A stretch of DNA of 64,000 nucleotides from an uncultured candidatus Porisulfidus sp. (GCA_965116025.1 OZ220480.1:576001-640000); one strand, 5' to 3'; positions 20,677 through 38,700 are shown, counted from the first letter of the stretch. Notes: generated by a model from the sequence alone, not told the origin. Translations and numbers: made by a program.

Positions 20677-21816
20677 TCACCTTGAGATTTGGATCAGCGC
20701 GCCGGATTCCGGGAGGCGCGAAGCCTCCTGAAGAAGCTCGCATAATTCCATGTTGACATAGTAGTCGCCACGACCCGCGCGGCGTTTCTCGACCAGACCA
20801 GCATTCGCGAGCTGACCCAGCCAGCGAATGGCGGTCGCCCGCGAAACCCCCAGCTCACGCTGGACATGCCGTGAACGCGTGTACGGATGCCGGAACAGGT
20901 TATTCAGAAGATCCTGAGAGTACAACTTGGGCAAGACCTCGCGCATCCGCGCCTTGCGTTTCTTCATGAGCTCGTGGATCCCGGAGACCAGGCGCATGCT
21001 CGCCTTGGACGTCTCCTCGACCACCGCGAGCATGTATAGCGTCCAATCCTCCCATGCGTCCTCTTCCCGAGCGGACTGGAGCAGTTGGTAGTATCTCGCC
21101 CTAGTCTGGAGAATCGTCCGGCTCATGTACAGGATCGGAGGATCCAGCAAGCCCGTCTTCGCGAGGTAGAGAGCGTTCAGGACTCGGCCCACGCGCCCGT
21201 TGCCGTCGGAGAAGGGGTGAACGCTCTCGAACTGCAGATGGATGAGCGCCATCCTGATCAACGGATCGAGTGGCCCCGGGGATACGTCATTGACATAGCG
21301 AAGAAGCGCGCGCATGAGGCTCTTGATCTCGGCGAGCTCTTTCGGCGGGACATACACGATTCTCCGCTCCGCTGGATCTCCCCCGTAGGCGGGCTTCTCC
21401 CGGAAGCCATCTTGACGACCCGTGATCTCTCGATAAACATCTATAATCACGCGCTCCGTGACCCGCCATCCTGATTCGATCAGGATTCGGTAGCCCTTCT
21501 TCAAGGCCCGCCGATACCGCATCACCTCTTTGGTGGCAGCGGACGCTCTCGACTCCCCCAGAACGCCATCTGCTCGGAAAAGCTCATCCTGCGTGGTCGC
21601 GATATTCTCGACCGCGGAACTCGCGTGCGCTTCCTGCAAAGTGAGCGTGTCGATCAATATTTCCTGATTCGGTATGGATGCCGCGCGGCCCGCGAGCTCG
21701 CCCAAGGCGCGATTCGCGCTGGCGAGAGCCTTCAAAATCCGTACCGTGTTGAGATCGACCCCATAGGGAGGCAACGGGCAAAGATATCGTTCCATTCTTG
21801 ACAAAAAACTTATCAA
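20677..21816 (-). CDS. Fic-family protein (class II, Fic_N plus C-terminal HTH)
   Basis: HPFSDGNGRVGR catalytic motif, SSAVEN inhibitory motif, LLNNLFRHPYT. Confidence 0.92.
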   Translation of the reverse strand: MISFLSRMERYLCPLPPYGVDLNTVRILKALASANRALGELAGRAASIPNQEILIDTLTLQEAHASSAVENIATTQDELFRADGVLGESRASAATKEVMRYRRALKKGYRILIESGWRVTERVIIDVYREITGRQDGFREKPAYGGDPAERRIVYVPPKELAEIKSLMRALLRYVNDVSPGPLDPLIRMALIHLQFESVHPFSDGNGRVGRVLNALYLAKTGLLDPPILYMSRTILQTRARYYQLLQSAREEDAWEDWTLYMLAVVEETSKASMRLVSGIHELMKKRKARMREVLPKLYSQDLLNNLFRHPYTRSRHVQRELGVSRATAIRWLGQLANAGLVEKRRAGRGDYYVNMELCELLQEASRLPESGALIQISR

Positions 21817-22197
21817 AATTTGCCGTTTATTATATCTTCAACAATTAATCATTTCAAATATAAATATTTTTGATATATAGCTGGAGCGATCTTCTCAAAA
21901 TTCTCGGTATTTGAACGAATGACTCAGATGAGACCGCAAGAATTTCGGAGCGCGTTTCCCGAAAATTTCCCACGTGGTGAAAGGCCGATACCCCACCCCC
22001 ATAATCATGGTGCCGGCCTCGCGATCTCAAGCGCGAGATAGGGGATGCGCCTATGGAGCGCGGAGGCCATCGCCCGCGACCTCTCCACGGCCGCGTCAAA
22101 TCGCGCGCGAATTTCCGCTTAAAGCAACAGTACGCGGAAAACTGTTGCAATTAGGCCGGATGCCGCCTTCCGCGGGCGGATTCCCTAGGGCTGAGGC

Positions 22198-23073
22198 TCA
22201 AAACGCGCGACTACGGAAAGGCTCGACCGCTCCCTGCATCGCCGCCGCCCGCGCCGTATTGAGCAACAGGCAAGCCACCGTCATCGGCCCGGTGCCCCCG
22301 GGCATCGGGGTCACGCGTCCCGCGACCTTCCGGACCTCCTCGAATCGAACGTCCCCCTGGATCTTCCCGCCCACGCGGTTCACCCCGACATCGAACACCG
22401 CCGCGCCGGGCTTGACGTGCTCCGCCGTGATCATTCCGGGACTGCCGGTCGCCGCCACCAGAATATCCGCCTCGCGCGCGATCCTTCGCAGACCCCGAGT
22501 GCGCGAGTGCGCCACGGTCACGGTGGCGTCCACCCCACGCTCGGCCAGCATCAGCGCCATCGGCACGCCTACCAGGCGCGAGCGCCCAACCACCAGGGCT
22601 CGCGCTCCAGAAGTCGGAATTCGGTAATGCCGGATCAGCTCCATCACGCCGAACGGCGTGCATGGACGCAACCCGGGAAGCCCCGCCGCGAGACGGCCCA
22701 AGTTGGTTTCCGTCAGGCCGTCCACATCCTTATCCGGAGGGATGGCGGCTAGCGCCTCCGCGGAGTCCAAGCCGCCCGGAAGCGGCATCTGCACCAGGAT
22801 CCCGTGCACGGATGGGTCGCCCGCCAAAATCCGGATCGCCTGGACCAGATCCTCCTGAGCGATGTCCGCGGGAAAGGCCTGATGCCGCGAGATGATCCCG
22901 GCCTCGTCGGCCTCCCTGATCTTCCGGGAGACGTACAACTGGCTGGCCGGGTCCTCGCCGACCAGCACGGTCGCCAAGGTCACCGGGGCCGCGGCATCCA
23001 GACGCTCGGCAAGCCGCGCGCGGATTCCGCGCGCGACCGCGTCGCCGTCGATCAGCCGCCCGGACTCACTCAA
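22198..23073 (-). CDS. folD: Methylenetetrahydrofolate dehydrogenase/cyclohydrolase
   Basis: VGEDPAS.LYV, HGILVQMPLP, KDVDG, PCTP, GRS.LVG.P, TPMPGGTGPMT. Confidence 0.95.
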   Translation of the reverse strand: MSESGRLIDGDAVARGIRARLAERLDAAAPVTLATVLVGEDPASQLYVSRKIREADEAGIISRHQAFPADIAQEDLVQAIRILAGDPSVHGILVQMPLPGGLDSAEALAAIPPDKDVDGLTETNLGRLAAGLPGLRPCTPFGVMELIRHYRIPTSGARALVVGRSRLVGVPMALMLAERGVDATVTVAHSRTRGLRRIAREADILVAATGSPGMITAEHVKPGAAVFDVGVNRVGGKIQGDVRFEEVRKVAGRVTPMPGGTGPMTVACLLLNTARAAAMQGAVEPFRSRAF

Positions 23074-23992
23074 TGGGGGGTTGCTTGTCCGGGTCGAGAT
23101 AGATCAGGTTCTTTCCAAGGCGGCCGCCGTAGTTTCCGGCCGAGATCATGATCAGGCCCGCGGTGTCGCGAGACGCCTCGATGGCCGCGTGGGTGGCCTG
23201 GATGATCGTCTCCAGGTCGCGCCCGTTAATGATGATCTCCATGACCGAGCTCACGCCTTCCGGGAGGCCTCGCTCGACTTCCGGGTCATCCTGCAGCATG
23301 GGGCAGAATTTCTCGTAGGTGCTGGCGATCGAGAACTTGTACGCGCTGCCGGGTTTGGAGCCAGACCCCGCGACTCCGCCGGGGAAGCACATCACCACGC
23401 CCGGCGTCTTGGCGATCGCCTCGACTCCCTTCATGGCGGCGTTCAGCGCGGAATCGACATCGCCGCCGAAGAACCAGAGATTGCCGCCCATCAGGCCGTC
23501 GGCGTACCCTAGCCTGCGGTCCAGCACGAACTCGCCGCCCAGAATCGGCACCCACCACATCTTTCGCCCGAATCGCTCGACGCGGCGCTGCTTGCCATTC
23601 CCGAAATAGGCGACCTTCCGGCCCATCTGGAAGTGATCCTCGGTGTCCAAAAGATTGAAGCAGGAAGCCGTCGGGCAGGTCAGCACGTTCTGGCTGATCC
23701 GCACCAGCGCGGCCCGCTCCAGCTTCTCCACCCGGTCCTTCCAGAAACGCGGCACGTGCAATTGCACGATCGCGCCCGGGCGTCCGTCCGGGGTCTCGAA
23801 AGACTCGTCTCCCCCCGGTCCCACGAACCGGTCCAGGCCCGCCTCGCAATCACACAGAATCGTGCTGGCGGCGTTCCCGACCGCGGCGTCCACCGCGTGC
23901 CGGACCCAGGTCTGGTCCCGGGCCGTGATCAGAAACTCAGTGTAGAGGCTACGGAACGCCTCGGCGTAAGTGTCATCGATTCGCGCGGACAT
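23066..23992 (-). CDS. fhcD: Formylmethanofuran-tetrahydromethanopterin formyltransferase-like (Ftr/FhcD)
   Basis: IDDTYAEAF, TPDGRPG, RISQNVLTCPT, YFGNG, GGNLW, FPGGV..SGSK, EIIING, SAGNYGG.LG. Confidence 0.9.
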   Translation of the reverse strand: MSARIDDTYAEAFRSLYTEFLITARDQTWVRHAVDAAVGNAASTILCDCEAGLDRFVGPGGDESFETPDGRPGAIVQLHVPRFWKDRVEKLERAALVRISQNVLTCPTASCFNLLDTEDHFQMGRKVAYFGNGKQRRVERFGRKMWWVPILGGEFVLDRRLGYADGLMGGNLWFFGGDVDSALNAAMKGVEAIAKTPGVVMCFPGGVAGSGSKPGSAYKFSIASTYEKFCPMLQDDPEVERGLPEGVSSVMEIIINGRDLETIIQATHAAIEASRDTAGLIMISAGNYGGRLGKNLIYLDPDKQPPIE

Positions 23993-23995
23993 GGA

Positions 23996-24628
23996 TCAGT
24001 CTCGCCCGCGACCCCGATAGACCGCGTCCTCGGTCACCACGTAATCCATGTACACGTCGTGCGGAGCGACCAGAATCTCTTCGAACAGCTGCGATTCGTA
24101 GCACAGCGCCACCAGCGCGCAATCCGGACGGACCCGCTCGAGCAAGCGGTCGTAGTAGCCTTGGCCGTTGCCCATGCGGCCGCCGTCGCGGTCGAAGCCG
24201 ACGCCCGGGACCATCACCATGTCCAACTCCTCCGCCGCCGGCTCCTTGTCCGGGTTGCCCCACATCTCTTTCGGAGGCTCGAGGATGTTCCATTTGCCGA
24301 CCACCATCTCCTCCAGACTCTCCATGTGCCACAGGCCGAGCTTGTTCTCCCCCTTCTCGTCCACCGTGCAGTACGGCACGACGATCTTCTTCTCGCCCTT
24401 GGCCACCTCGTCGAGCAGTTGCGGCTTGGTGCGGGTCTCGGAGCGGCAGTCGATATACCACATGACGGAGCGGGCGTTCCCATACTCCTCCAAGGCCATC
24501 AGGCGCCCCACCGCCCGGGCGCTGATCTCGTCCTTGTTCTCCTGGGCGTTCCGGCGGTCATACGCCTCGCGGCGCATCTTGGCCTTCCGCTCCATGATCG
24601 CGTCAAGTTCTTCTTGTGACAAAGCCAT
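23996..24628 (-). CDS. 5-formyltetrahydrofolate cyclo-ligase
   Basis: ILEP, DMVMVPGVGFDRDGGRMGNGQGYYDRLL, PHDVYMD.VVTE. Confidence 0.92.
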   Translation of the reverse strand: MALSQEELDAIMERKAKMRREAYDRRNAQENKDEISARAVGRLMALEEYGNARSVMWYIDCRSETRTKPQLLDEVAKGEKKIVVPYCTVDEKGENKLGLWHMESLEEMVVGKWNILEPPKEMWGNPDKEPAAEELDMVMVPGVGFDRDGGRMGNGQGYYDRLLERVRPDCALVALCYESQLFEEILVAPHDVYMDYVVTEDAVYRGRGRD

Positions 24629-25160
24629 CGGGTCTCTCCTATGCGCCTGCGGCGGGGAAAATCGGGTAACCGGAAAAGTGAGGTGCAGATTATAGGGGAT
24701 TTCGCTCCAGGCGCCTGAAAGCGGGGTGGAAGGCATCACTGGCGGCAATCATCGCCTCTCCGGGCTCGCTTCCACCCATCCGTCCCTAGCCTCGCGATCA
24801 AGCGGAGCGAGACCCTCTGACATGGTGGATGACGCCACGCGCCCAGTCGCGCCTTCACCAGCGTTTTCCTTACTTTTCTGGCTCCTTTGTAGCGAGTCGT
24901 CAAAACATAGCCAACTCTCCCCCGGATTGCCATCAGCAACCTGTTACTCCGCTTCTGGTCCAGTCGTCTCCTTCGTCGCCTCGCGCGCTGGTCAACCAGC
25001 GCGGTTTTCGGGCGTGTCACGCTTGAAAGTTGAAACCGGGGCTACCAAAAAATCCAGTATCCGACGAAACACCACAACAGGCCAGCCAATATAAAAGCCA
25101 CCCAGTTCGAGACTTGATCCGCGCCTCTTCGAACCAGCAGAAAGTCATTCCTATTAATCT

Positions 25161-28100
25161 TCATACGATGCGCGCCTCGCCCCCAACGATGGAGTACGTG
25201 GGCCGTTCGAGCCCGGACCAGGAGATGACGGATGACTGTCCTTTGTGAGTCAGAGTCACGGCCCCGGCCGAGAGCAACCGATCCCGCCACGACACGCTAT
25301 CGAACAACGAATCCCGGACGATCAGGACATCGGTGCCGCCCTCGCCGCCGTCCAGGTCGCCACTGAGCGCGGCGTTGGCCAGCAGAACGAATTGGTCTAC
25401 GTTATGGCCCCCCCGTAGCCTCTCCACCCCGGTGAAATCGACGGTCCACATCCTTCCGTCTTCGCCCGCCCCGAACCGGAGGTTTCCAGAATTGGAGCCG
25501 TCAAGGGTCCAGACGACGTTCACGCCGGGCCCCTGGATGGCGTCAATCGCGCCGCCGGCGCGAATACCTCTCATCCCGTACGCCTTGAAACCGTAGACTT
25601 CGAAGCTGCCGTCCGTAGAGAACGTCCAGGTCGTGTCCTCGTTCTTGCCCACGAACCAGTTCTTGCCAGAACCAGCCGCCAGCTTCTCGAACCCGTGGAG
25701 AGTCCAGGTGGCGGCGGTGGCGCGATCCTGCGCGTCGAGAGCTGGCCCCACGCGCGCCGCTCCCGCCTCCGTGACCGACCATGCTCGATCACCGGCGTCC
25801 CCCAGCGCCGTGTCCTCTCCACTTCCCCCTCCCAGCTCCTCGACCGAAGTGAATCGGGCCAGCAGCGCCTCGCTGTAGGAATCCAGCGTGGCCAGCATCC
25901 GACCTGATTCCCCGGAGTCCGGCAGAGTCCAGAGAGTCGCCTCGTCATTGAGGATCGCGATGCGGTCGTTTCCCTCTCCCCCGTCGAACTCGATGATCGG
26001 CAGGGGATTGACGGTCTCCGAGATGCTCAACGCGTCATCGAAGCCATCCGCGTCAATGGTGACGGTATCGTCGCCGGAGCCGGTCAGGATCACGAATCGG
26101 GTAACGGCCCCAAGTTCCACGTCCGCCAACTCGCGGTCCGACCCGTCCACGAGCTTGATACGGTGGGCGCCATCCGGATCCGTGGCCAACTTGAACCTGA
26201 GATCAAGATCGCCAGTCTCCGAACTTCGGTCAACGGTGTAAATGGACTCGACGAGCTCGAAGTCGGTATAGGAGACGGTGATGTCGTCGAGAGTCACGCT
26301 GCCCGACTCTGGAGAGCCGCTCATCTCGATCAACTCGTAATCGGTGTATTCGTAGGCCAGCGTGTCCTCGCCATTGCCTCCGTTCAGCCTCTCGATGCCA
26401 GTGAATCCGATCCGTAATCCCTCCTCCTTTCCGTCGAGCGCGCTCGATACATCGCCCGCGCCCGCGCCCGCGCCGGACAGGGTCCACCGCGAATTCTCGT
26501 CGGAAAGCACCGTGAGCACGTCGTTCGCGCCTTTCTCTCCCGTCACGATGAAAGACGGGGTCCGCGTGGCCGCGTTCTTTCCGAGCAAACTGGCGAAGGA
26601 CGTAGCGTCGATCACGACGCGGTTGTTCGCGCCTCCCCCAAGCGTCACGCGAAGAATGGAAATGTCCGAGAGATCCCAACTGTGAATTTCCTCCGGATCG
26701 GAGTCGAGCGTGGGAAAATCGTAAACCTTGACATAGTAAGCGGTCCGCGTCTCCTCGTTCACGGTCGTCTCCACGGCGACCAGCTTGACCTGAACGATCC
26801 GGTCCTCCTCGTCCTCATTCTCCTCGGCTCCGAGATTTATCTCCCGCTCCGTGGATTCGAAGTTAGCGCGAGCGATCACCGGGCCGATGGCCGGGCCCGC
26901 CACATGCTTGATGCGGAGAGAATCCGTCGGGCCGGCTCCGTCGAGACTCTCCACTCCGGTAAAGTCCACGGTCAGCGGTCCGGAATCCTCCGCGACCGTG
27001 GCCCACGCCACGCCATCGCCGTCCGGCTCCACGATCCAATCGGTTTTCGCGTCGTTGGTGATGACCAATTGGTCTTGACCTCGTCCGGCATCCACGATGA
27101 TCACGGGTGGCTGGGGACTGTCGGACTGCCGGGCACCGAACGAAGTCGCGTCGATGACGATCCGATCATCGCCATCCCCGGTGCGCAGAATGATCGATGT
27201 GGTGTCGGACGCGCTGGTCGCGGCCACGACTACGGCGGGATCATCGGCATCGACCGCGGCGAAGCGCGCGCTTCCGTTCTCACCATCCACGCGCTTGACA
27301 AGAAGCCGCTGGGCAGCCTCCTGATCGGAGCGGTCGATCACCCATGTGGATTCGACGCTGTCGAAGTCCGAATAAGACAACGACGCGCCGTTAAGCTGGA
27401 CCGTCTCGCGCGCTCCCGGCCCCTCGACCGCGGGGCGGTGACTGAACGCGACGCTCGTGAAATCCGATTTCACGACCGCCAGCTCGTCCTTCCCCACGCC
27501 GCCCACCAAATTCTCCGCGCCGGACCAAGAGACGTTCAGCCGAGTCTCTCCATCCGCGAGATTGCCGCTCACCGCGCCTGCATCCGCGTTTCTGACCGAC
27601 CACTTCAGGTCGCCTCCGTGGGTGATCTCCAGTCGATCTTGATCCCCCTCCCCAGTATCGACGAGAAACTCCGGAACCGCCTCGCCATCACTCAGGTCCT
27701 GGAAGGAATCCGCCTTGATCGTGACCCAATCGTCACCCCGCCCGGTGTTGACGGAAACTCGGGAGACATCGGCGAGCCGCTGCTTGGCGACGACATTCCC
27801 GGTGTTTCGGTCAACGATCTGGACGTAATTGACGTTCTTCATGTCGCCGTTGGCCCGTTCCCTCTGCTTGACCATCTTGACGATGAGCTGCTGCTCCCCC
27901 GCGCCGCCAGACAACCCGGTCACGTCGTGGACAGCTCGCCGTTGAGCAGCAGACGAGGCTCCATCGCCTCGAACAGAAACGGCTGCCTAGCGCGCGGGCG
28001 GCGCGCCTCCGGCCAAGTTGGGATGCGGGAGCGGACCCAATTCCGGACCACTCCAGAAAGCGGACTTCGGGACTCGGGTTCCAGGCAACTCTCGGACGAG

Positions 28101-28165: not shown

Positions 28166-29517
28166 CCGCGCGAGGGAGGGTGGAATCAAGGCGGATTTTC
28201 CATTGGCCCGATCTCCCGCCCGCGTCCCCTTATCCGCGGCAGCATCACAGGCGATCACCCGCATCCGCGCCCACGCGCGGGCGGCCACGTCACGGCTTGA
28301 GGAATCCCTCGCCTCAGGCCGCCCTCTCGCTCTCCCCGCCATGACGGTCTCTCGCCTCCCAGAGCGCGCTGACATCATTTCCGTCGGGCGGCCCGCGTTC
28401 CTTGACGTAGAAAGATCGCTGGCAGCCACCAGCCCGGCGCCTGGAATCGGTCGGTTTCCCGACCGTCGTCCCGCTCGTCAACCCGAGCGAAAAACGCGCG
28501 GAACCGGCTTGGCAAAGTTTAGGCGGGGGATGTTTCTTTTATGTGAACGCGCCTCCGCTCCGGTCGAGCGGAAAACGCCGCGCTGGACTGTGGGTCACGC
28601 GCCCGGAAGATCAAGGAGAACCGGGCTTGGCAAGGGGTGGATCGCCAAAGGTGAAAGGTGAAGAATCGCTATCGAATGAAAGTGCTTCTGGATGGCTTGG
28701 GTAAGCCCAAGGTCAAGCGAGGGGTGTCAGTCATACTTGGAACACCTTCATCACTTCGTCACCAAAATGATTGATGGCCTTGACCGCGATACGGCCGGAA
28801 GCGGGCTTGGGAAAAGGGCGGGAAGTGTCTCTTTTCAGGGTGGCCCACACCTCTTCATCAATCTCGGCCCTCAAGGTCGTTTTGAGGGACTTGTAGGGAT
28901 CCTGCGCCCCAAGGAAGTAAGCATGGCGCACGAAGAAACTCTCCTCGTTATAGTCGGTGTCCACAAACCAGCACGCGATGCCGTCAGCATTGTCGCTCCG
29001 CACCTCGCCGCTATTAGGATGGAAAACATCCACGCCTTTGATACGCACCCGGATGCTACCGTCATCATCCGGCAAGATATCAATGTCGGGCTCGCCAAAG
29101 ATCACGAAGAGATTTCCTTTCCCGGTATTCTTGAGGTCATCGGCCATGTGCAGATCAGCGTTCATGCGCGCCTTCAATATCGGAATTCGCCCGAGCTTAT
29201 TCAATTCGGTGGCATGAACATCGTAGTTGAAGGCGCAAGCGACCAACACATCGCAACCGGCATCGGCAGCTTCACGCGCGGCGGTTACCAAATCTGCCCG
29301 CATGACCGTTCCAAATTCCGGGCCAATAAAAATGCCAGCGCATCGTATGGTGCCTTTGTCACTATCGCCCTCCAAATAGTCCCCTCGGGCGCAGACGAGG
29401 TTCCCAGGCCAAGGAACCAATGAAATGAACTTGATGTGATCCCCTTTGCGCGCCTGCTGGACACCAGAGGTTGCCAGATTCTTCAAGATCATATCAGTGA
29501 AATTCGATGCCTCTTGC

Positions 29518-29540
29518 GGGGGGGGGGGGGGGGGGGGGGG
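29518..29540. repeat. G23 homopolymer (C23 on the mod coding strand, encodes Pro8)
   Basis: Counted directly; currently in frame. Confidence 0.85.
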
Positions 29541-30289
29541 ATTATCGTTATCAGCGACCGTCAGCATCCTGTGCGGGGACAAGCTTTCGACCGTGAAAGG
29601 ACCAGCGACGCGAACGCGAGTCTCATCCTGGAATGGTTTGTCGTATAGGTATTCAGTATCCGCCATACCTGCGATAGAGTCATCAATCTTCTTTTGTCGG
29701 GCGATACGCGCCTCCCACCACTGCTCATGCGCGGACACCGCGTCATCCGGCCAATCCCTTTCAGCCTCTCGTGGAATTTCCCACTCTTCCCAAGCCTTTC
29801 TGAGACTGTTATTGAGTTGGGCGCGGAGAGGCTCCAAGGTATCTTGCCAGGTCCGCCAAATTACGTCTATTTCGGCATTGTTAGCAATCGAACCCAGCGT
29901 GATGTGGGGCACCTGTTTGTAGACGAAGCCATGACGGAGATCACCGCAAGTAGGGTCACCCGAAGGAGCCCGCCCAGAGATTTCAGATTCATTCTTTTGC
30001 CCCTCTGGGCTATCAGCCAAAATGTAGTAAGGGTAGCGCGCCGCCATGATTCGAGATCGTGCCAAAGCCAAGGCGACGCGCGAGGTGTCTATGGTGATCC
30101 AGCGCCGTCCCCACTCCTCGGCAACATAAGCGGTGGTGCCAGAACCACAAGTTGGATCCAGAACTAAATCACCGGGGTCTGTAGTCATCAGGATGCAGCG
30201 TGAAACTGGTTTTTTAGAAGTCTGCACAACGTAGGATTTAAAGATTTCGGGACCTGTGTCATTCCAAGAATTCGGAATCTCAAAAGCTA

Positions 30290-31454
30290 GTGTAGTGTAA
30301 TCTAATTATAGATATTTATACTTGCTTGGCGCGGAGGGGCGCCAGCTTGTCCAGGATCTGCTCGGGCGTCTTGCTCCACGAGAACGGCTTCGGGTCGGCG
30401 TTGTGATGATCCAGAAAATCGTGGATCGCCCGGGTCAGCTCCCGCACGCTTCGGAACACCCCCCGCCGCACGCGCCGCTCCGTCAGCTCCCGGAAGAACC
30501 GCTCCACCAGGTTCAGCCAGGACGCCGAGGTCGGCGTGAAGTGGACGTGGAAACGCGGCCGCCGCGCGAACCATTCCCTCACCTTGCGATGCTTGTGGGT
30601 GGCGTAGTTGTCCACGATCAGGTGGACCTCCAGCTCCTTCGGGACATGCCCGTCGATCTCCCGCAGGAAGCGCAGGAACTCGACATGCCGATGGCGCTGG
30701 TAGCAACGCCCGAACACCGTGCCGTCCACGGCGTTCAGGGCCGCGAACAAGGTGGTGGTCCCGTGCCGCTTGTAGTCGTGCGTCATGGTTCCGGCGCGCC
30801 CCTTCTTCATCGGCAATCCGGGCTGGGCGCGATCCAGCGCCTGGATCTGCGACTTCTCGTCGACGCACAGGACCAAGGCATGCTCAGGCGGGTCCAGATA
30901 CAGCCCGACGACGTCGCGCAGCTTCTCGACGAAGCGCTCGTCGGTGGACAGCTTGAACGTTTGGACCAGATGCGGCTTCAGCCCGTGCGCGCGCCAGATC
31001 TTGTGAACGGTGGCGTGGCTCACCCCGGCGTGCTGAGCCATGCCACGGGTCGACCAATGCGTGGCCTGTTCGGGAGCGTCATGCAGGGTGTCCTCGACGA
31101 TGCGCTTGACCACGTCGTCGCCGTAGGTCCGCTTGCGCCCTCGCCCAGGACGGTCGGACAGCCCGGCCAAGCGCCGCTCGGCGAAGCGGTTCCTCCACTT
31201 CGCCACCGTGCTGGCGCTCGCGTCCAGTTGATCGGCGATGTCGATGGTGCGCCGGCCCTCGGCGGCGAGCAGCACGACGCGAGCGCGAAACGCGTCGCGA
31301 ACGCTGGAGAGGCTCGAGCGAGCCGTCTCGCTCAGGGCGGCGAGCTCCTCGGCGCTGAGCTCGATGGGAATGGCGCGTCGCATGCGATTCTCCTCCTGAT
31401 CATGGCAATCCGGCGAAGTGTAGCATAAATATATATTATTGACGTACACTACAC
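30290..31454 (-). mobile_element. IS630-family insertion sequence (1165 bp)
   Basis: IRs gtgtagtgtaatctaattatagatatttatac and gcataaatatatattattgacgtacactacac. TA duplication at 30288-30289 and 31455-31456 in a CTAG target. Confidence 0.95.
30316..31383 (-). CDS. IS630 transposase
   Basis: N-terminal HTHs, VDEKSQIQALDR, THDYKRHGTTTLFAAL, VDNYATHK, HFTPTSASWLNLVERFF. Confidence 0.96.
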   Translation of the reverse strand: MRRAIPIELSAEELAALSETARSSLSSVRDAFRARVVLLAAEGRRTIDIADQLDASASTVAKWRNRFAERRLAGLSDRPGRGRKRTYGDDVVKRIVEDTLHDAPEQATHWSTRGMAQHAGVSHATVHKIWRAHGLKPHLVQTFKLSTDERFVEKLRDVVGLYLDPPEHALVLCVDEKSQIQALDRAQPGLPMKKGRAGTMTHDYKRHGTTTLFAALNAVDGTVFGRCYQRHRHVEFLRFLREIDGHVPKELEVHLIVDNYATHKHRKVREWFARRPRFHVHFTPTSASWLNLVERFFRELTERRVRRGVFRSVRELTRAIHDFLDHHNADPKPFSWSKTPEQILDKLAPLRAKQV

Positions 31455-32685
31455 TAGATAATCATCGTAATAGTGCCTTGCCCTAAGTGCAGTATCATCA
31501 ACATGAATCCTAGATGCTCTGCAGAGTCTTTCAAACCCGATTAGCGAATATCTCCAACTTCTCATTGAGGGTATTTGCCAATCGGACCCGAATGCCTTTC
31601 TAGGCTCATTGTCCCCGGAAGCCATTGAGTGCACAGGAAGTTTTTGGTAGGGCCTCGACCCATCTGGACATTTGGAAGAATCTGCGCGCTCTTCCAACGT
31701 CATAGGCCTATGGCGCTGCTGGCCCAAGTCCAACTGATTGTACGTAACCGTGTTAACTTGCTTACCCTTTTCCGCCAATAATTTGCGGAACTTAATCTCC
31801 TCTGAATTTTTGCAGTACCAAACAATAAAGTTCGAGATGCTCTTAACTGAATTTTTTCGGGTTGTGCCACTGCTCGTCCGATAGGTGATGAGATTGACAA
31901 AATTATCTGCCCCAAACACCTCATCCATTAATGCTCGAATACGATGCACATTCGCTTCCCCTATCTGCACAAAAATAGAGCCGCTTTCTGCCAACAAATC
32001 ACGCGCCGCAGTAAGCCGGTCTCGCAGATAGGTCAGGTAGGAGTGAATGCCATCGCGCCATGTGTCTCGAAACGCCTTTACCTGCTCTGGCTCGCGAGTA
32101 ATCTGCTTGGCGTTGCCATCCTTCACTTCGCGGCTTGTAGTGGACCACTGAAAGTTGGAATTGAATTTGATCCCGTAGGGTGGGTCAATATAGATGCACT
32201 GCACCTTGCCTCGCAAACTCTCCCGCTCAGCCAATGACGCCATCACCTGCAGGCTGTCCCCCAAAATCATGCGGTTTGACCAGTTCGCGTCGTGTTGATA
32301 GAACTCAGTGCGCGCAGCCTCGCTCGGCAGGCCATTAAAATCGGCAAAGAGATCTAATGTAGTCGGCATCTCTTCCTCTCGCCGCTCCCGTGTCTGCCTC
32401 AACAAATCGTCAATTAATGATTTGGGATGCACCTTCTCCTGGATGTAGAGTGGCGGTGCATGAACGATGAATTCGGCCGCATCTTGTTCATCCTTTCCCC
32501 GCCAAACCAATTGGGGGTCGAGATCTCGATTACGCCGCTCGTAGGCCACGCGGACAGACTTTTTCTCGTCTTCCGATAGAACGGGCTGGTATTCCGCTGT
32601 TGGAATATTGCGCCGTGATGCGTCCTCGTGGACCAGCGTCTCTATCGATTTTTTGTTTCTCTTTTTGCGTGGCATGCTGACGCTC

Positions 32686-33186: not shown

Positions 33187-33211
33187 AGGGTGTCACATTG
33201 TGTGACACCCT
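33187..33211. promoter_or_regulatory. Perfect palindrome (11-bp arms) next to an extended -10 on the minus strand
   Basis: agggtgtcaca-ttg-tgtgacaccct, with TGCTAAACT on the minus strand at 33177-33185. Confidence 0.55.
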
Positions 33212-33876
33212 CGCGCCGCCAGTGTGTCCTTTTTGCCACACTTCATTACATCCCGCTTCACGGCCAGCGGGATCGGCGCGAGACAACGCGGGCATACCAG
33301 CAGCTCCTCGATCCGCCGGCGTAACGTCCGCAATTCCTCTTCCTTTCGCGCGAGCTTCCCGGACAACTCCGCTATCAACGCCTTATCGCTGGCCGACGGC
33401 GCGGCGGCCTTCGCCCGCTTGCGACCGCCCCGCGTCCGCTCCGGACGCGGCGGCTTTCCATCCAGCTCGTTCATCGCGTCAAGCGCCGTAGGAAGGGAAA
33501 CGCCCATTTCCTCCGCTATCGCCCGCGCGGACGGCGCCGCCTCGCCCTCGCGCTCCGCCCGCCATCGGTATACCTGTATTCGCGTCTTGCACCGCTCCAG
33601 TTTGCTCACATGGCGCCGCCAGTCATTCACCCGCAAAACGAACGCCGCCGGGTCATCGCCGGCGAACTCGCGCATGCGCGGGGTCGGGTCTCTATAAAGC
33701 GCCAGCATGCACCGGTACCGATGCCAGCCGTCCAGCGCCTTGCCCTCGTATAGCGTGATCTCCACCGAGCCGTCGTCCGTCTTGATGCTCGCCTTCAGCT
33801 CCGCCCGGTCCGCCTCGCCCATCGTTCCGAACGCCGCCGATAGCGGATGCCGTTCAAGGATAGTAAGATTGTCCAT
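33193..33876 (-). CDS. Phage-type ParB-like N-domain plus HTH and coiled-coil protein
   Basis: HPLSAAF..M....ELKASI, ITLYEGKALDGWHRYR, F.GDDP.AFV..N..RRH, then SARAIAEEMGVS (HTH) and a CxxC near the C-terminus. Confidence 0.7.
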   Translation of the reverse strand: MDNLTILERHPLSAAFGTMGEADRAELKASIKTDDGSVEITLYEGKALDGWHRYRCMLALYRDPTPRMREFAGDDPAAFVLRVNDWRRHVSKLERCKTRIQVYRWRAEREGEAAPSARAIAEEMGVSLPTALDAMNELDGKPPRPERTRGGRKRAKAAAPSASDKALIAELSGKLARKEEELRTLRRRIEELLVCPRCLAPIPLAVKRDVMKCGKKDTLAARGCHTM

Positions 33877-34054
33877 GTCGCACTCCCATGCGATAGCGGC
33901 GCCGCGCATGGCCTGCCCGCGAATATAGGCCGGCGCTGGCGCCCATTAATAAACGGGCATTCCCAGACTCCTAGCCGCCACTAAACGGCCACAATTTTGT
34001 TAAGACGGGAAGAACATCCCGTCAAGCGCGCCAGCGTTGTCGGCGGCCTTGCCC

Positions 34055-34351
34055 CTATTCTATACGCCCCGCGTCTTCATCAACGCTCCGGGGCGGGCGG
34101 CCCGGACGCGGCTTGTCCTCGAGGCCGGCCATCCCCCGCTCCGCGAAGCGATTGCGCCACTTCCTCGCCGTGAAATAGTGAACGCCCAACTTCGCGGCTA
34201 TGCGCGGATTGCTCAATCCCTCCGCCGCGAGCAACACCACCCGCGCCCGTTCGGACTTCGCCCGCGATATGCTCATCTTGCGCGCCCGCCGCTCCAGCTC
34301 CGCGCGCTCCTCATCGGTCAACGTGACCGGTACCGGCTTGCCCATGAGCAA
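34055..34351 (-). CDS. Stand-alone IS630-type HTH DNA-binding domain
   Basis: LTDEERAELE..RARVVLLAAEG.SN..IAAKLG...KWRNRFAERG.AGL.DKPRPGRP followed by a stop. No DDE domain or IS ends seen. Confidence 0.75.
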   Translation of the reverse strand: MLMGKPVPVTLTDEERAELERRARKMSISRAKSERARVVLLAAEGLSNPRIAAKLGVHYFTARKWRNRFAERGMAGLEDKPRPGRPPRSVDEDAGRIE

Positions 34352-34425: not shown

Positions 34426-34644
34426 CTACGCCCCTCGCGCTATCGCTAGCGCTCGCTCCAGCGCCGCGATCGTCGCGTCCACGTGAACGAACAGCAGTTG
34501 GTACTCGCTAGGCTTGAGCTCCTCGCCCGCCCGCGCCCGCTCGTACAGAACGCGAATCATCGAGGCCTTGCCCGCTTGCTCCGGGTAGGCTTCCTTATCT
34601 TGGATAAAGCCTCGCTCCCAGTCTCGCTTCGGGTCTTCCATCAC
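34426..34644 (-). CDS. Small hypothetical protein coupled to the last RTX gene
   Basis: 72 aa; start overlaps the RTX-4 stop. Confidence 0.55.
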   Translation of the reverse strand: MMEDPKRDWERGFIQDKEAYPEQAGKASMIRVLYERARAGEELKPSEYQLLFVHVDATIAALERALAIARGA

Positions 34645-35468
34645 CCCATGAACACGAAATCGGACTCCGTCAACTCGTCCGCGCTAATCCCCGTGAGCGT
34701 GACGCTCGCGTTCTTCCCGTACCCGGTGATCACCGCGCCGGCCTCGCTGTCCACGATCGTCAAGTCCTCGTAATCTAACTTCTTGCCGTAGAACACCAGC
34801 TTGTCGCGCCATTCGGGATGGTAGTTTCCTTTCGCGTCGGTATTCCCCGGCCCGGCCCGTTCCGTGATCCACTCCCCTTCATTGTCCGGGTCTGCGTATG
34901 AGTAGGTACCGGAGTTTTCGAGGAAGTCCGTAATCACGTCATGGCCGCTATAGCGGTGAAACTCGAAACGATCCGCTCCCCAGCTCCCTTTCAGCGTGTC
35001 GTCGCCGCGCCCGCCTCGAAGAACGTCCGCGCCCTCGGCGCCGTTCAGCGTGTCGTCGCCACGCCCGCCGTATAGATGACTGTTTCCGCCGCCGCTGTTC
35101 AGCGTGTCGTTCCCGTTCCCGCCGAACAGAACGTCGTGACCCCAGCTGCCGTCCAGCGAGTCGTTCCCGCGCCCGCCGAACAGAACGTCGTGACCCCAGC
35201 TGCCGTCCAGCGTGTCATCGCCCACGCCGCCGTACAGGTAGTCGTTCCCGTCCTTGCCGTCCAGCGTGTCGTCGCCCGCGCCGCCTTTCAGCGTGTCGTC
35301 GCCGCCCTTGCCTTTCAGCGTGTCGGCGCCCGCGCCGCCGGTCAGCGTCACGCCCTCATCATTGGACGGATTGGGAAGGTTATTGGGATCGGGATTAGCG
35401 GGATCGGGATCGCCTTGCTCGGCAAGAAAAGCCTTCTTCCATTTCTGCCACGCGGGAATTCTGGCCAT
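34641..35468 (-). CDS. RTX (hemolysin-type Ca-binding) repeat protein, copy 4
   Basis: GGxGxDxL nonapeptides; C-terminus LTESDFVFMG resembles a T1SS signal. Confidence 0.92.
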   Translation of the reverse strand: MARIPAWQKWKKAFLAEQGDPDPANPDPNNLPNPSNDEGVTLTGGAGADTLKGKGGDDTLKGGAGDDTLDGKDGNDYLYGGVGDDTLDGSWGHDVLFGGRGNDSLDGSWGHDVLFGGNGNDTLNSGGGNSHLYGGRGDDTLNGAEGADVLRGGRGDDTLKGSWGADRFEFHRYSGHDVITDFLENSGTYSYADPDNEGEWITERAGPGNTDAKGNYHPEWRDKLVFYGKKLDYEDLTIVDSEAGAVITGYGKNASVTLTGISADELTESDFVFMG

Positions 35469-35512
35469 GATTTCTCCTCATTGAATTTTGGGTGGATATA
35501 GTCTACTCCATA

Positions 35513-36343
35513 TTACCCCATGAAGTCGAAATCGGACTCGGTCAAGTCGTCCGCGCTAATCCCCGTGAGCGTGACGCTCGCGTTCTTCCCGTACCCGGTG
35601 ATCACCGCGCCGGCCTCGCTGTCCACGATCGTCAAGTCCTCGTAATCTAAATTCTTGCCGTAGAACACCAGCTTGTCGCGCAAGTTTGGATCGTAGTTTC
35701 CTTCCGCGTCGGTATTCCCCGGCCTGCCGCCCTTTTCCATGATAATCTCGGAGGGATTTTCCGGGTCTGGGTATGCGTAGGTAACGTCGTTTTCGAGGAA
35801 GTCCTTAATCACGTCATCGCCGCTATAGCGGTGAAACTCGAAACGATCCGCTCCCCAGCTCCCTTTCAGCGTGTCGTCGCCGCGCCCGCCTCGAAGAACG
35901 TCCGCGCCCTCGCCGCCGGTCAGCGAGTCGTTCCCGCGCCCGCCGTATAGATGGTTGCTTCCGCCGCCGCCGATCAGCGTGTCGTTCCCGTTCCCGCCGA
36001 ACAGAACGTCGTGACCCCAGCTGCCGTCCAGCGAGTCGTTCCCGCGCCCGCCGAACAGAACGTCGTTCCCGTATGAGCCGTTCAGCGTGTCATCGCCCAC
36101 GCCGCCGTACAGGTAGTCGTTCCCGTCCTTGCCGTCCAGCGTGTCTACGCCCGCGCCGCCGTACAGGTAGTCGTTCCCGTTCTTGCCGTTCAGCGTGTCG
36201 GCGCCCGCGCCGCCGGTCAGCGTCACGCCCTCATCATTGGACGGATTGGGAAAATTATTGGGATCGGGATTAGCGGGATCGGGATCGCCTTGCTCGGCAA
36301 GAAAAGCCTTCTTCCATTTCTGCCACGCGGGAATTCTGGCCAT
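35513..36343 (-). CDS. RTX repeat protein, copy 3
   Basis: As copy 4; ends [10 protein letters not shown]. Confidence 0.92.
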
Positions 36344-36387
36344 GATTTCTCCTCATTGAATTTTGGGTGGATATAGTCTACTCCATA

Positions 36388-37191
36388 TTACCCCATGAAG
36401 TCGAAATCGGACTCGGTCAAGTCGTCCGCGCTAATCCCCGTGAGCGTGACGCTCGCGTTCTTCCCGTACCCGGTGATCACCGCGCCGGCCTCGCTGTCCA
36501 CGATCGTCAAGTCCTCGTAATCCAACTTCTTGCCGTAGAACACCAGCTTGTCGCGCACATCTGGCAAGAGGTTTAATTCATGGTCATAATTTCCTCTCGG
36601 CAGAAGCTGGCCGTCCGAGTCTTCCACGGTGCTACCGGCTTCGAGGAAGTCCGTAATCACGTCATCGCCGCTATAGCGGTGAAACTCGAAACGATCCGCT
36701 CCCCAGCTCCCTTTCAGCGTGTCGTCGCCGCGCCCGCCTCGAAGAACGTCCGCGCCCTCGCCGCCGGTCAGCGAGTCGTTCCCGCGCCCGCCGTATAGAT
36801 GGTTGCTTCCGCCGCCGCCGATCAGCGTGTCGTTCCCGTTCCCGCCGAACAGAACGTCGTGACCCCAGCTGCCGTCCAGCGAGTCGTTCCCGCGCCCGCC
36901 GAACAGAACGTCGTTCCCGTATGAGCCGTTCAGCGTGTCATCGCCCACGCCGCCGTACAGGTAGTCGTTCCCGTTCTTGCCGTCCAGCGTGTCTACGCCC
37001 GCGCCGCCGTACAGGTAGTCGTTCCCGTTCTTGCCGTTCAGCGTGTCGGCGCCCGCGCCGCCGGTCAGCGTCACGCCCTCATCATTGGACGGATTGGGAA
37101 GGTTATTGGGATCGGGATTAGCGGGATCGGGATCGCCTTGCTCGGCAAGAAAAGCCTTCTTCCATTTCTGCCACGCGGGAATTCTGGCCAT
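36388..37191 (-). CDS. RTX repeat protein, copy 2
   Basis: Near-identical to copy 3 except for the loop between DFLE and RDKLVFYG. Confidence 0.92.
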
Positions 37192-37235
37192 GATTTCTCC
37201 TCATTGAATTTTGGGTGGATATAGTCTACTCCATA

Positions 37236-38231
37236 TTACCCCATGAAGTCGAAATCGGACTCGGTCAAGTCCGCTTTGGCCGTGTTAAAAATCGTGATGC
37301 TATCGCCCGTTCCGTAGCCGGTGATCGTCACCCCTACCGTCTCGGTGTGATCCACGATGGTCAAGTCCTCGAACTTCCGGTTCGCGTCGCCCTTGATAAC
37401 GATTTTGTCGCCGTCGTCGAAGTGGTTGATCAAGTCGTTGCCATCGCCCGTGCTGAAAACGAACTTGTCTTTACCCTCTCCTATTTCGCCGAACAACGTG
37501 TCATTGCCCTTGCCGCCGATCAGCGTGTCGGCGCCCGCGCCGCCGACCAGCGTGTCGTTGCCATCGTCGCCGATCAGCGTGTCATCGCCCGCGTCGCCGA
37601 ACAGCGTGTCTACGCCAGCGCCGCCATGCAGCTCGTCGTTGCCAGCGCCGCCGTACAGGCGGTCTACGCCAGCGCCGCCGTACAGGTAGTCGTTGCCCAC
37701 GTCGCCCACCAGGTGGTCGCCGCCCGCTTCGCCGTACAGGTAGTCGCCGCCCTCGCCGCCATACAGCGAGTCGTTGCCCGCGCCGCCCCACAGGTAATCC
37801 TTCGCGCCGGCCTTGAGAGGCGCCCAAGAATCGCCCCACAGATAGTCATCGCCCAGCCCGCCCCACAGATGGTCGGTTCCGCCGCCGCCGATCAACTTGT
37901 CATCGCCCGTGATGGTATTCCAATAAGTCGGGGAATTGGTATCGCCCCAAAGCTTGTCATCGCCCCTGCCGCCGAACAGAAAGTCTTTACCCGAGCCGCC
38001 ATACAGAAGGTCTTTACCCGAGCCGCCATACAGAAAGTCGTCACCAAGGCCGCCATGCAGCTCGTCGTTTCCATCACCTCCCCATATATAGTCTCTATCG
38101 CCTTCGCCATACAGGTAATCGCGACCGCCTTTGCCATACAATTTGTCGATGCCGTCTCGAGCTAGCATGATATCGCTTTCTTCGGTACCTTTCTTGATAT
38201 TGTTTCCGTCTGTTCCTATCCAACTCGCCAT
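37236..38231 (-). CDS. RTX repeat protein, copy 1 (divergent, no variable loop)
   Basis: More than 20 GGxGxDxL-type repeats, same terminal [19 protein letters not shown]. Confidence 0.92.
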   Translation of the reverse strand: MASWIGTDGNNIKKGTEESDIMLARDGIDKLYGKGGRDYLYGEGDRDYIWGGDGNDELHGGLGDDFLYGGSGKDLLYGGSGKDFLFGGRGDDKLWGDTNSPTYWNTITGDDKLIGGGGTDHLWGGLGDDYLWGDSWAPLKAGAKDYLWGGAGNDSLYGGEGGDYLYGEAGGDHLVGDVGNDYLYGGAGVDRLYGGAGNDELHGGAGVDTLFGDAGDDTLIGDDGNDTLVGGAGADTLIGGKGNDTLFGEIGEGKDKFVFSTGDGNDLINHFDDGDKIVIKGDANRKFEDLTIVDHTETVGVTITGYGTGDSITIFNTAKADLTESDFDFMG

Positions 38232-38280
38232 GACCTTATCCTCCAGTGTGATTATTAGTATCGGACTTCCCGCGTGTAAG

Positions 38281-38361: not shown

Positions 38362-38700
38362 TTAGGAAAACTTGGAATAGGCGGCCTCGAAGCCGGCTTT
38401 ATGACCCGCCATCCACTCCTCCGTTAGCGTCTTCGCGGTCAAACTCGCGCCCGCGATCTCCGGCGCGATAGCCCGAAGCGTTGCCGCCGCATGGTATTTC
38501 AGATGCTTCGCGGACACCGGATAGGTTTCGGGCCATTCCCCCCGCTCGGCCAGCGCCCGCCCGTCATAAAAGCCCCGCCCGTAGGCCGAATACCAGACCG
38601 ACCGAGAGGCGTAAGCCCGATCCGTCGCGCCGATCGCCGGCCAGTCGATCGGCGTTCCCTCGATCTCGTCCGCGCCCAGATAGTGTCGTATTCCGCTCAT
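38362..38700 (-). CDS. Hypothetical protein downstream of portal
   Basis: 112 aa, GAGAGG RBS, co-oriented with the head genes. Confidence 0.6.
   Translation of the reverse strand: MSGIRHYLGADEIEGTPIDWPAIGATDRAYASRSVWYSAYGRGFYDGRALAERGEWPETYPVSAKHLKYHAAATLRAIAPEIAGASLTAKTLTEEWMAGHKAGFEAAYSKFS

Follow-up and report, generated by a model that had tools for sequence, protein, structure and literature searches.

The 64,000-nucleotide window analysed here comes from an uncultured candidatus Porisulfidus sp. (GCA_965116025.1 OZ220480.1:576001-640000) and carries, at 34641-38231 on the minus strand, four complete, co-oriented genes for RTX (repeats-in-toxin) proteins in tandem. Positions are counted from the first letter of the window unless they are given as genome positions. 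All four proteins contain tandem GGxGxDxUx nonapeptide repeats and thus belong to the RTX proteins. The RTX repeat family PF00353 is the only Pfam family found in the four copies, with 5-10 stretches per copy. An earlier note, made from the sequence of the window, had given the coordinates and protein sequences of these genes correctly. The genes and the inserts that distinguish them are:

37236-38231, minus strand: copy 1, a long RTX protein of 331 amino acids (aa) with a canonical cap and without the insert (PF00353, E 5e-68)
36388-37191, minus strand: copy 2, a short RTX protein of 267 aa (PF00353, E 4e-39)
36556-36639, minus strand: copy 2 insert, type A, 84 nt, 28 aa, between DFLE and RDKLVFYG
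35513-36343, minus strand: copy 3, a short RTX protein of 276 aa (PF00353, E 8e-39)
35681-35791, minus strand: copy 3 insert, type B, 111 nt, 37 aa, between DFLE and RDKLVFYG
34641-35468, minus strand: copy 4, a short RTX protein of 275 aa and the last of the array (PF00353, E 2e-45)
34809-34916, minus strand: copy 4 insert, type B, 108 nt, 36 aa, between DFLE and RDKLVFYG

Each short copy is composed of a short N-terminal helix, a Pro/Asn-rich linker, a β-roll with 12-13 nonapeptide matches (by regular expression of the motif) and a C-terminal cap; just ~40 residues stand before the repeats. The 44-nt spacers between the copies are identical, each with a GAGGAG ribosome-binding site, and the four genes are apparently co-transcribed. 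The divergent inserts of copies 2-4, which the earlier note had placed between DFLE and RDKLVFYG, were reproduced by alignment. Copy 1 indeed lacks an insert and has the canonical short turn DDG-DKIVIKG at this site. The NCBIfam models for RTX toxins, serralysins/proteases and lipases matched the repeat region only, with scores far under their cut-offs. A pore-forming RTX toxin of the HlyA/CyaA type was considered and rejected, since NF033943 reached 98-138 bits against a cut-off of 1000 and was matched at positions 673-843 of 930 only.

Divergence of inserts and scaffold

The contrast between insert and scaffold in the array is real and far exceeds what chance would give. In the scaffold, just 6 of 764 nucleotides separate copies 2 and 3 (4/596 upstream and 2/168 downstream of the insert), whereas their inserts differ at 45 of 84 aligned nucleotides and additionally by 27 nt in length (Fisher p = 1.2e-44). 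Between copies 3 and 4, 41/764 scaffold nucleotides differ, compared with 26/108 in the insert (p = 6e-9). The claim that copies 2-4 are nearly identical in DNA outside the insert therefore stands for copies 2 and 3 but not for copy 4, which departs from the other two at 39-41 of 764 scaffold nucleotides, in patches inside the RTX repeats.

The inserts had also been described as sharing only the tripeptide GNY, which underestimates their similarity. The inserts of copies 3 and 4 are related, with 21 of 36 residues identical, including a 37-nt stretch at 95% identity. Only the insert of copy 2 (type A) is unrelated to the others. A fifth paralog, situated at a second locus in the genome, carries a third insert of type B; the copy 4 insert differs from that of copy 3 at 15 of 36 residues, and at 15/36 from that of the second-locus paralog. 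For copies 2 and 3, the synonymous divergence (dS) is 0.008-0.03 in the scaffold and 1.6 in the insert, and for copies 3 and 4 the respective values are 0.04-0.07 and 0.19. As dS is far higher in the inserts, these would be older than the scaffolds that surround them. The ratio of nonsynonymous to synonymous divergence (dN/dS) among the type-B inserts is 1.0-1.7, a value to which few sites contribute and which does not reach significance (Fisher p = 0.58).

A protein of a related strain, P0004, allows a comparison beyond this genome. It is located on a 23.9-kb contig that also encodes the 112-aa and 72-aa open reading frames (ORFs) found at either end of the array, at 97% and 92% identity, respectively. 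Compared with copy 2, P0004 shows 0/28 differences in the insert and is identical over residues 105-263, and its N-terminus differs at 21 of 104 residues. Within this genome, paralogs 2 and 3 differ at 2 of these 104 N-terminal residues. The conserved insert and diverged N-terminus of P0004 indicate that scaffolds resemble each other by genome, and inserts by allele. Such a pattern points to concerted evolution: gene conversion, or unequal crossing-over of recent date, would have occurred with breakpoints in the invariant flanks. P0004 ends in FVFMG, as do the genes preceding the 72-aa ORF in this genome; the comparison suggests that a type-A gene occupies the last, or sole, position in the related strain. 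The sequence clusters to which copies 3 and 4 belong each consist of a single member, and the content of the array appears to vary between strains.

Outside this genome and the one related-strain contig, no relatives of the inserts were found in the sequence collections searched. Searching 5.8 billion clusters with the inserts gave 4 matches among 78 candidates, and searching 1.84 billion representatives gave 25 matches, of which P0003 alone spans the insert. A query of insert plus cap found nothing in 40 related genomes (0/40), scans of JGI metagenomes gave no match, and neither did IMG/VR with the cap alignment.

We hypothesise that tandem duplication or unequal crossing-over of an 848-875-bp unit built the array and that gene conversion keeps the scaffolds alike within the genome. 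The inserts would persist as a few old, discrete alleles (copy 2 has type A, whereas copies 3 and 4 and the second-locus paralog have type B), and these alleles may be exchanged or retained through recombination in the conserved flanks.

Other generators of variation were considered and rejected. Targeted hypermutation, or simple positive selection on recent duplicates, is at odds with the high insert dS, the differing insert lengths, the lack of any corresponding machinery and the unchanged insert of P0004. When the genome was searched with the four inserts (blastn-short and tblastn), just the four full genes were matched and no other copy of any insert was found, so there is neither a template repeat nor a set of silent cassettes. 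A diversity-generating retroelement was rejected on account of this lack of a template repeat, of 0 matches to the reverse transcriptase family PF00078 in the 99.4%-complete genome and of the insert lengths of 84, 108 and 111 nt. Silent-cassette antigenic variation of the vls/pilS type was rejected because blastn-short and tblastn of the genome revealed no partial cassettes. The loops had been called hypervariable and antibody-like, a description that we do not uphold: the inserts are few, discrete and old alleles (dS 0.19-1.6), the type-A insert is conserved at 28/28 residues in the related strain, and no diversification machinery was found in the genome.

Predicted fold, export and the RTX family in the genome

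An AlphaFold2 model of copy 3 from its single sequence has a confident β-roll (predicted local distance difference test, pLDDT, of 80-90 at residues 40-150) and a poor C-terminus. Using an alignment of 20 sequences that comprises the genome paralogs and distant matches (alignment A3), AlphaFold2 predicted residues 135-276 of copy 3, corresponding to roll and cap, with a pLDDT of 85.4 and a predicted template modelling score (pTM) of 0.77. Structural neighbours of the latter model were ranked with Foldseek. It superimposes on residues 512-617 of PML (Pseudomonas) lipase (2zvd) over 101 of 142 residues with a root-mean-square deviation of 2.0 Å (Z 15.0), and on block V of CyaA (5cvw) over 99 aligned residues (Z 12.0). 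A C-terminal profile search of the PDB matched CyaA RTX blocks, including block V, as well as lipase and serralysin C-termini. As modelled, the array proteins have a parallel β-roll followed by a C-terminal capping/secretion region. This agrees with their previous description as proteins that lack an enzymatic domain and combine a β-roll with a C-terminus typical of type I secretion substrates, given that PF00353 is the only family matched and that fold and profile comparisons match this architecture.

About 40 model residues do not align with 2zvd, a size that agrees with the 37-aa insert of copy 3. This insert occupies model residues 51-87 and adopts a β-hairpin (strands 53-59 and 62-71), after which comes a loop of lower confidence; the mean pLDDT per ten-residue block is 71, 83, 59 and 77. 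Structure prediction, which the earlier note had proposed as a check on loop exposure, thus models the insert as an excursion from the conserved fold. The insert is predicted to be a hairpin that protrudes at one turn of the cap, without counterpart in the matched structures, and is likely to be exposed at the surface.

The aligned sequences of other family members reveal that this site accepts insertions elsewhere as well. Canonical relatives in alignment A3 have only 'DG(K)' at the insert site and no insertion, P0006 and P0016 bear an unrelated insert of ~17 aa at the same cap site, and a genome paralog at 788 kb bears yet another. Two RTX paralogs, at genome 432850-434022 (L006:111-440) and 1359025-1360161 (L010:3067-3396), instead bear a Pro-rich insertion, likewise variable, in another loop of the cap, and cap-loop variation is thus a trait of the family and not peculiar to the array.

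A motif scan flagged 19 of the 10,631 ORFs of the genome. Eighteen of these are small RTX proteins (229-478 aa) at no fewer than nine loci, most of which end in a DLT(E/D)SDFDFMG-like tail and most of which occur as pairs of one long and one short member. The second locus (genome 880-886 kb) duplicates part of the window segment in inverted orientation and contains, in order, a fragment of the 112-aa ORF, an insertion sequence (IS), a long RTX gene, a short RTX gene (type-B), the 72-aa ORF, an IS630 helix-turn-helix (HTH) fragment and an ORF of phrog_21315. The 3' half of copy 4 and its downstream flank are 92% identical to genome 883729-885464 over 1.7 kb. The RTX loci at genome 434072-434851 and 1601985-1602674 share a 100%-identical 212-aa frame, which implies that the segmental duplication of RTX loci is recent and ongoing.

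Type I secretion genes were not found in the window, as the earlier note had stated for the element. A complete set is present in the genome, more than 200 kb from the array. It consists of a PrtD-type ATP-binding cassette (ABC) transporter (TIGR01842, 598.8 bits, cut-off 510) and HlyD (TIGR01843, 322 bits, cut-off 209), both at genome 395-398 kb, and of two TolC genes elsewhere (TIGR01844, 284 and 253 bits, both over the cut-off). RTX repeats give 113 matches in this genome, compared with 1 match in one of 12 congeners and none in eight other relatives (0/8). The PrtD-type transporter exceeds its cut-off in one of 21 genomes, namely this one, and in 0/20 relatives. The RTX genes and the transporter look like a lineage-specific acquisition that was followed by amplification. 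The co-occurrence of substrate and transporter supports export by the PrtD/HlyD/TolC system, without proving it. According to PMC3034196, PMC9120197 and PMC6891781, RTX proteins leave the cell unfolded through a type I system, and on binding calcium they fold, starting at the C-terminal cap. Judging by family knowledge and gene content, export of the array proteins most likely proceeds through the PrtD/HlyD/TolC system of this genome, with folding outside the cell once calcium is bound. The proposal that the host's type I system exports them is plausible, as its putative components all score over curated cut-offs.

Phage-like and other surroundings of the array

Upstream of the array lies a group of phage-like head genes, and smaller features border the RTX genes on both sides:

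41442-43007, minus strand: terminase large subunit TerL (phrog_9, E 8e-36)
41122-41445, minus strand: HNH gene (E 1e-7)
39759-41234, minus strand: capsid gene, HK97-type, with an N-terminal coiled-coil region (PF05065, E 8e-7)
38725-39759, minus strand: portal-like gene (PF04860, E 3e-10)
38362-38700, minus strand: 112-aa ORF between the portal-like gene and copy 1
38251-38280, minus strand: weak sigma-70-like site (9/12 matches) upstream of copy 1, a possible operon promoter
34426-34644, minus strand: 72-aa ORF, with its start overlapping the copy 4 stop
34055-34351, minus strand: IS630-type HTH fragment downstream of the array, duplicated with the RTX genes at the second locus
33193-33909, minus strand: 238-aa ORF of phrog_21315 downstream of the array, duplicated with the RTX genes at the second locus

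The head genes look like a decayed prophage. Their order (TerL, HNH, capsid, portal-like; 38725-43007) is unusual, and the portal-like protein is short (344 aa), with only its C-terminal third matching the Pfam portal model. In the stretch examined, no tail, protease, small-terminase or integrase genes were seen beside them, and IS elements adjoin the cluster. The capsid had no match in the phage collection or among the GTDB genomes, and TerL had none in IMG/VR. A relative of the capsid was detected in one of 40 genomes (G032, 36% identity), within an IS-ridden remnant in which portal fragments are present but RTX genes are lacking. At genome 804207-809185, immediately downstream of a gene for a 478-aa RTX protein, lies a second homolog of TerL (46% identity), interrupted by an IS630 copy. 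In the window, an IS630-family transposase (30316-31449) likewise splits a gene for an N6/N4 DNA methyltransferase (28731-32675); the genome has two further copies of this IS630, 99% identical. The RTX genes may be the cargo of a decayed prophage-like segment, or an insertion into it, that was later duplicated in the genome. Their adjacency to head genes does not point to a structural role in particles, and nothing observed ties the RTX proteins to particles.

The two small ORFs that border the array have few relatives. No family model searched matched the 112-aa ORF, a C-terminal fragment of which is present at the second locus. The 72-aa ORF is without a Pfam or PHROG family, and the only relative found outside the genome is P0029 of the related strain, at 92% identity. 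Its overlap with the stop of a short RTX gene recurs at the second locus, and a decayed pair is located at genome 412069-412409. With respect to transcription signals, the region holds three sigma-70-like sites against 2.3 expected, so the site at 38251-38280 alone is no evidence of a promoter; in a promoter/terminator scan of the region, the counts equalled the shuffle expectation.

Further features of the window lie at a greater distance from the array. A 1050-aa ResIII-type restriction enzyme with an endonuclease domain is encoded at 43698-48105, in a low-GC stretch (0.535), and a C5 cytosine methylase gene directly adjoins the terminase gene. A 920-aa ORF at 25161-27923 shows a coding-like GC content at third codon positions (GC3), no Pfam or NCBIfam family and three RTX-like motifs only. 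At 20677-24748, a Fic/DOC protein adjoins genes of one-carbon (C1) metabolism, namely formylmethanofuran-tetrahydromethanopterin (H4MPT) formyltransferase, FolD and 5-formyl-tetrahydrofolate (THF) cyclo-ligase. Their presence hints at a methylotrophic or formaldehyde-oxidising capacity. The acetyl-CoA synthetase of the window matched named genomes of mixed taxa, at 63-73% identity.

Interpretation and comparison with known systems

With moderate confidence, we favour a reading in which the array arose through tandem duplication, with gene conversion or recombination around discrete insert alleles, in which the insert probably serves as a binding module and in which carriage is prophage-like. 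We infer that the insert is probably a specificity-determining surface module and that the array gives the cell several binding variants at once. Several points weigh against this reading. The comparison between strains relies on a single protein, and the identical block of residues 105-263 may reflect a recently shared segment rather than constraint. Recent duplication followed by replacement of the insert would yield the same picture as ongoing gene conversion. The three-copy structure is seen in one assembly plus short contigs, and exposure of the insert in one AlphaFold2 model, in which part of the insert has a mean pLDDT of 59. Lastly, the dN/dS of the type-B inserts is not significant, and neutral divergence in a permissive loop is possible.

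In an alternative that we hold to be unlikely but not negligible, the cap turn is structurally permissive, the proteins are redundant secreted calcium-binding proteins (matrix- or surface-layer-like, or NodO-like), and the differences between inserts are meaningless. A permissive turn would account for the unrelated insertions that other family members bear at the same site and in another cap loop, and it is compatible with a dN/dS of ~1 in the type-B inserts. The role of most RTX proteins is, moreover, unknown according to the 2010 review PMC3034196. However, the inserts have sharp boundaries, with flanks that are fully conserved even in the diverged second-locus paralog, and the type-A insert is conserved at 28/28 residues between strains. 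Three distinct inserts are also kept in a homogenised array, in which conversion should erase neutral differences unless the divergence itself blocks conversion. A more sceptical view would regard the three short copies as an over-expansion of one or two genes in the assembly, which we judge very improbable. Such an artefact is conceivable because the units share up to 632 bp at 99.4% identity, beyond the span of short reads, because the related strain appears to have the type-A gene only, and because public runs gave only fragmented contigs at the array. Yet each insert is unique and found once in the genome, so that at least three distinct short genes and the second-locus gene exist, and the genome is a single 2.02-Mb contig of 99.4% completeness. 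The public runs (X1-X3) belong to one study and provide contigs only, which are too fragmented in the repeats for counting copies. A 344-nt contig of run X1 covers 36527-36870, that is, the copy 2 insert with both flanks, and matches exactly, with 0 differences. Another X1 contig matches 34400-34809 at 96%, the match ending at the insert boundary, and a contig of run X2 runs from the copy 4 insert into copy-3 coordinates at 84% identity. The X1 and X2 contigs lend weak backing to variation at the insert boundary.

Two more specific functions have to be weighed. The array proteins could be bacteriocin-like antagonists, with the insert setting target specificity and the translationally coupled 72-aa ORF encoding an immunity or accessory protein, a reading we consider improbable. 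At two loci the 72-aa ORF does overlap the stop codon of the final short RTX gene, with the decayed pair as a third case, both family and transporter are strain- or species-specific, and RTX bacteriocins are a known class (PMC3034196). The bacteriocins listed in that review are, however, much larger (88-439 kDa). A single 72-aa ORF accompanies three different inserts and is thus not insert-specific; it lacks a family, and no relatives were found outside the lineage. Pfam and NCBIfam searches detected no toxic domain. The earlier note had instead envisaged an antibody-like display of hypervariable loops that serves a phage-like element, as a decoy or for receptor binding by tailless particles, which we regard as quite improbable. 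In its favour, the RTX genes are flanked by the portal-like gene and the 112-aa ORF upstream and by the phrog_21315 ORF downstream, likewise at the duplicated locus, and the second, IS-split TerL homolog adjoins another RTX gene. PHROGs assigned 0 families to three RTX copies and one weak 'tail protein' match to copy 4 (E 0.0027). The distribution of the family weakens this proposal, as the 18 family members at nine or more loci lie mostly away from phage genes, and the second locus is a 92%-identical segmental duplicate and not independent evidence. RTX genes are lacking from the remnant that contains the capsid relative in G032, and RTX-like sequence was present in only 3 of 50,697 phage records, in each case as repeats only and never together with a capsid match, although a novel phage role could also go without such matches. 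The absence of tail, protease, small-terminase and integrase genes beside the head genes, in the stretch examined, also speaks against it, and the inserts are not hypervariable.

The favoured reading of recombining insert alleles can be taken further, to a modular 'specificity cassette'. The hairpin would be the recognition determinant, and its alleles would circulate among strains and recombine into a homogenised scaffold. Unequal crossing-over would set the number of specificities that a cell secretes simultaneously, and horizontal transfer, possibly via the prophage-like segment, would have brought in the whole family together with its transporter. In this full form the proposal is rather unlikely; if true, it would describe a recombination-based display repertoire on a β-roll cap in a free-living bacterium with a 2-Mb genome. 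In any case, the RTX β-roll cap, usually seen as a folding nucleus and secretion region, can bear sizeable, swappable inserts. If the inserts are binding determinants, they would offer a natural precedent for the RTX cap as a calcium-switchable display scaffold, as well as a small-scale example of concerted evolution in which variable modules are protected. The species-specific pairing of eighteen RTX genes with a PrtD-type transporter in a streamlined genome also provides a useful handle on the role of enzyme-less RTX proteins.

The array proteins resemble CyaA block V (5cvw, 5cxl, 6sus) and the C-termini of family I.3 lipases and serralysins (2zvd, 2qua, 1k7g) in their nonapeptides, β-roll and cap (Z 12-15 over ~100 residues), and the cap is critical for RTX folding according to PMC9120197. 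Unlike these proteins, they have no N-terminal enzyme or pore-forming domain. The predicted 28-37-residue hairpin at the cap turn has no equivalent in these structures; among the 25 matches in 1.84 billion representatives, it is confined to proteins of this genome. NodO of Rhizobium leguminosarum is, according to PMC3034196, an RTX-only protein of 30 kDa that the PrsDE type I system exports. It is similar in size class, in having RTX repeats without a catalytic domain and in a transporter encoded elsewhere. The portion of PMC3034196 drawn on here describes no tandem paralog array with a variable cap insert for NodO. In the open-access literature, no RTX paralog array with gene conversion or hypervariable regions, nor one combining RTX genes, a prophage and tandem arrangement, was found described.

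Targets of diversity-generating retroelements are comparable in that a localised variable patch lies on a constant protein. In contrast to these, no reverse transcriptase or template repeat is found here, and the variants are unequal in length, with differences at every type of base. The Opa genes of Neisseria and the sap S-layer genes of Campylobacter fetus are multigene families that are kept alike by gene conversion and differ in defined variable regions. The organism studied here appears environmental, with no known host immune pressure. The copies here are all complete, co-oriented and apparently co-transcribed, and neither silent cassettes nor phase-variable repeats nor an invertible promoter came to light. 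What the array shares with Opa and sap is a scaffold homogenised among paralogs, sharply bounded variable segments and recombination as the generator. The array is thus a sharply bounded mosaic in an otherwise ordinary RTX family, in which recombination, and not a diversification machine, explains the pattern.

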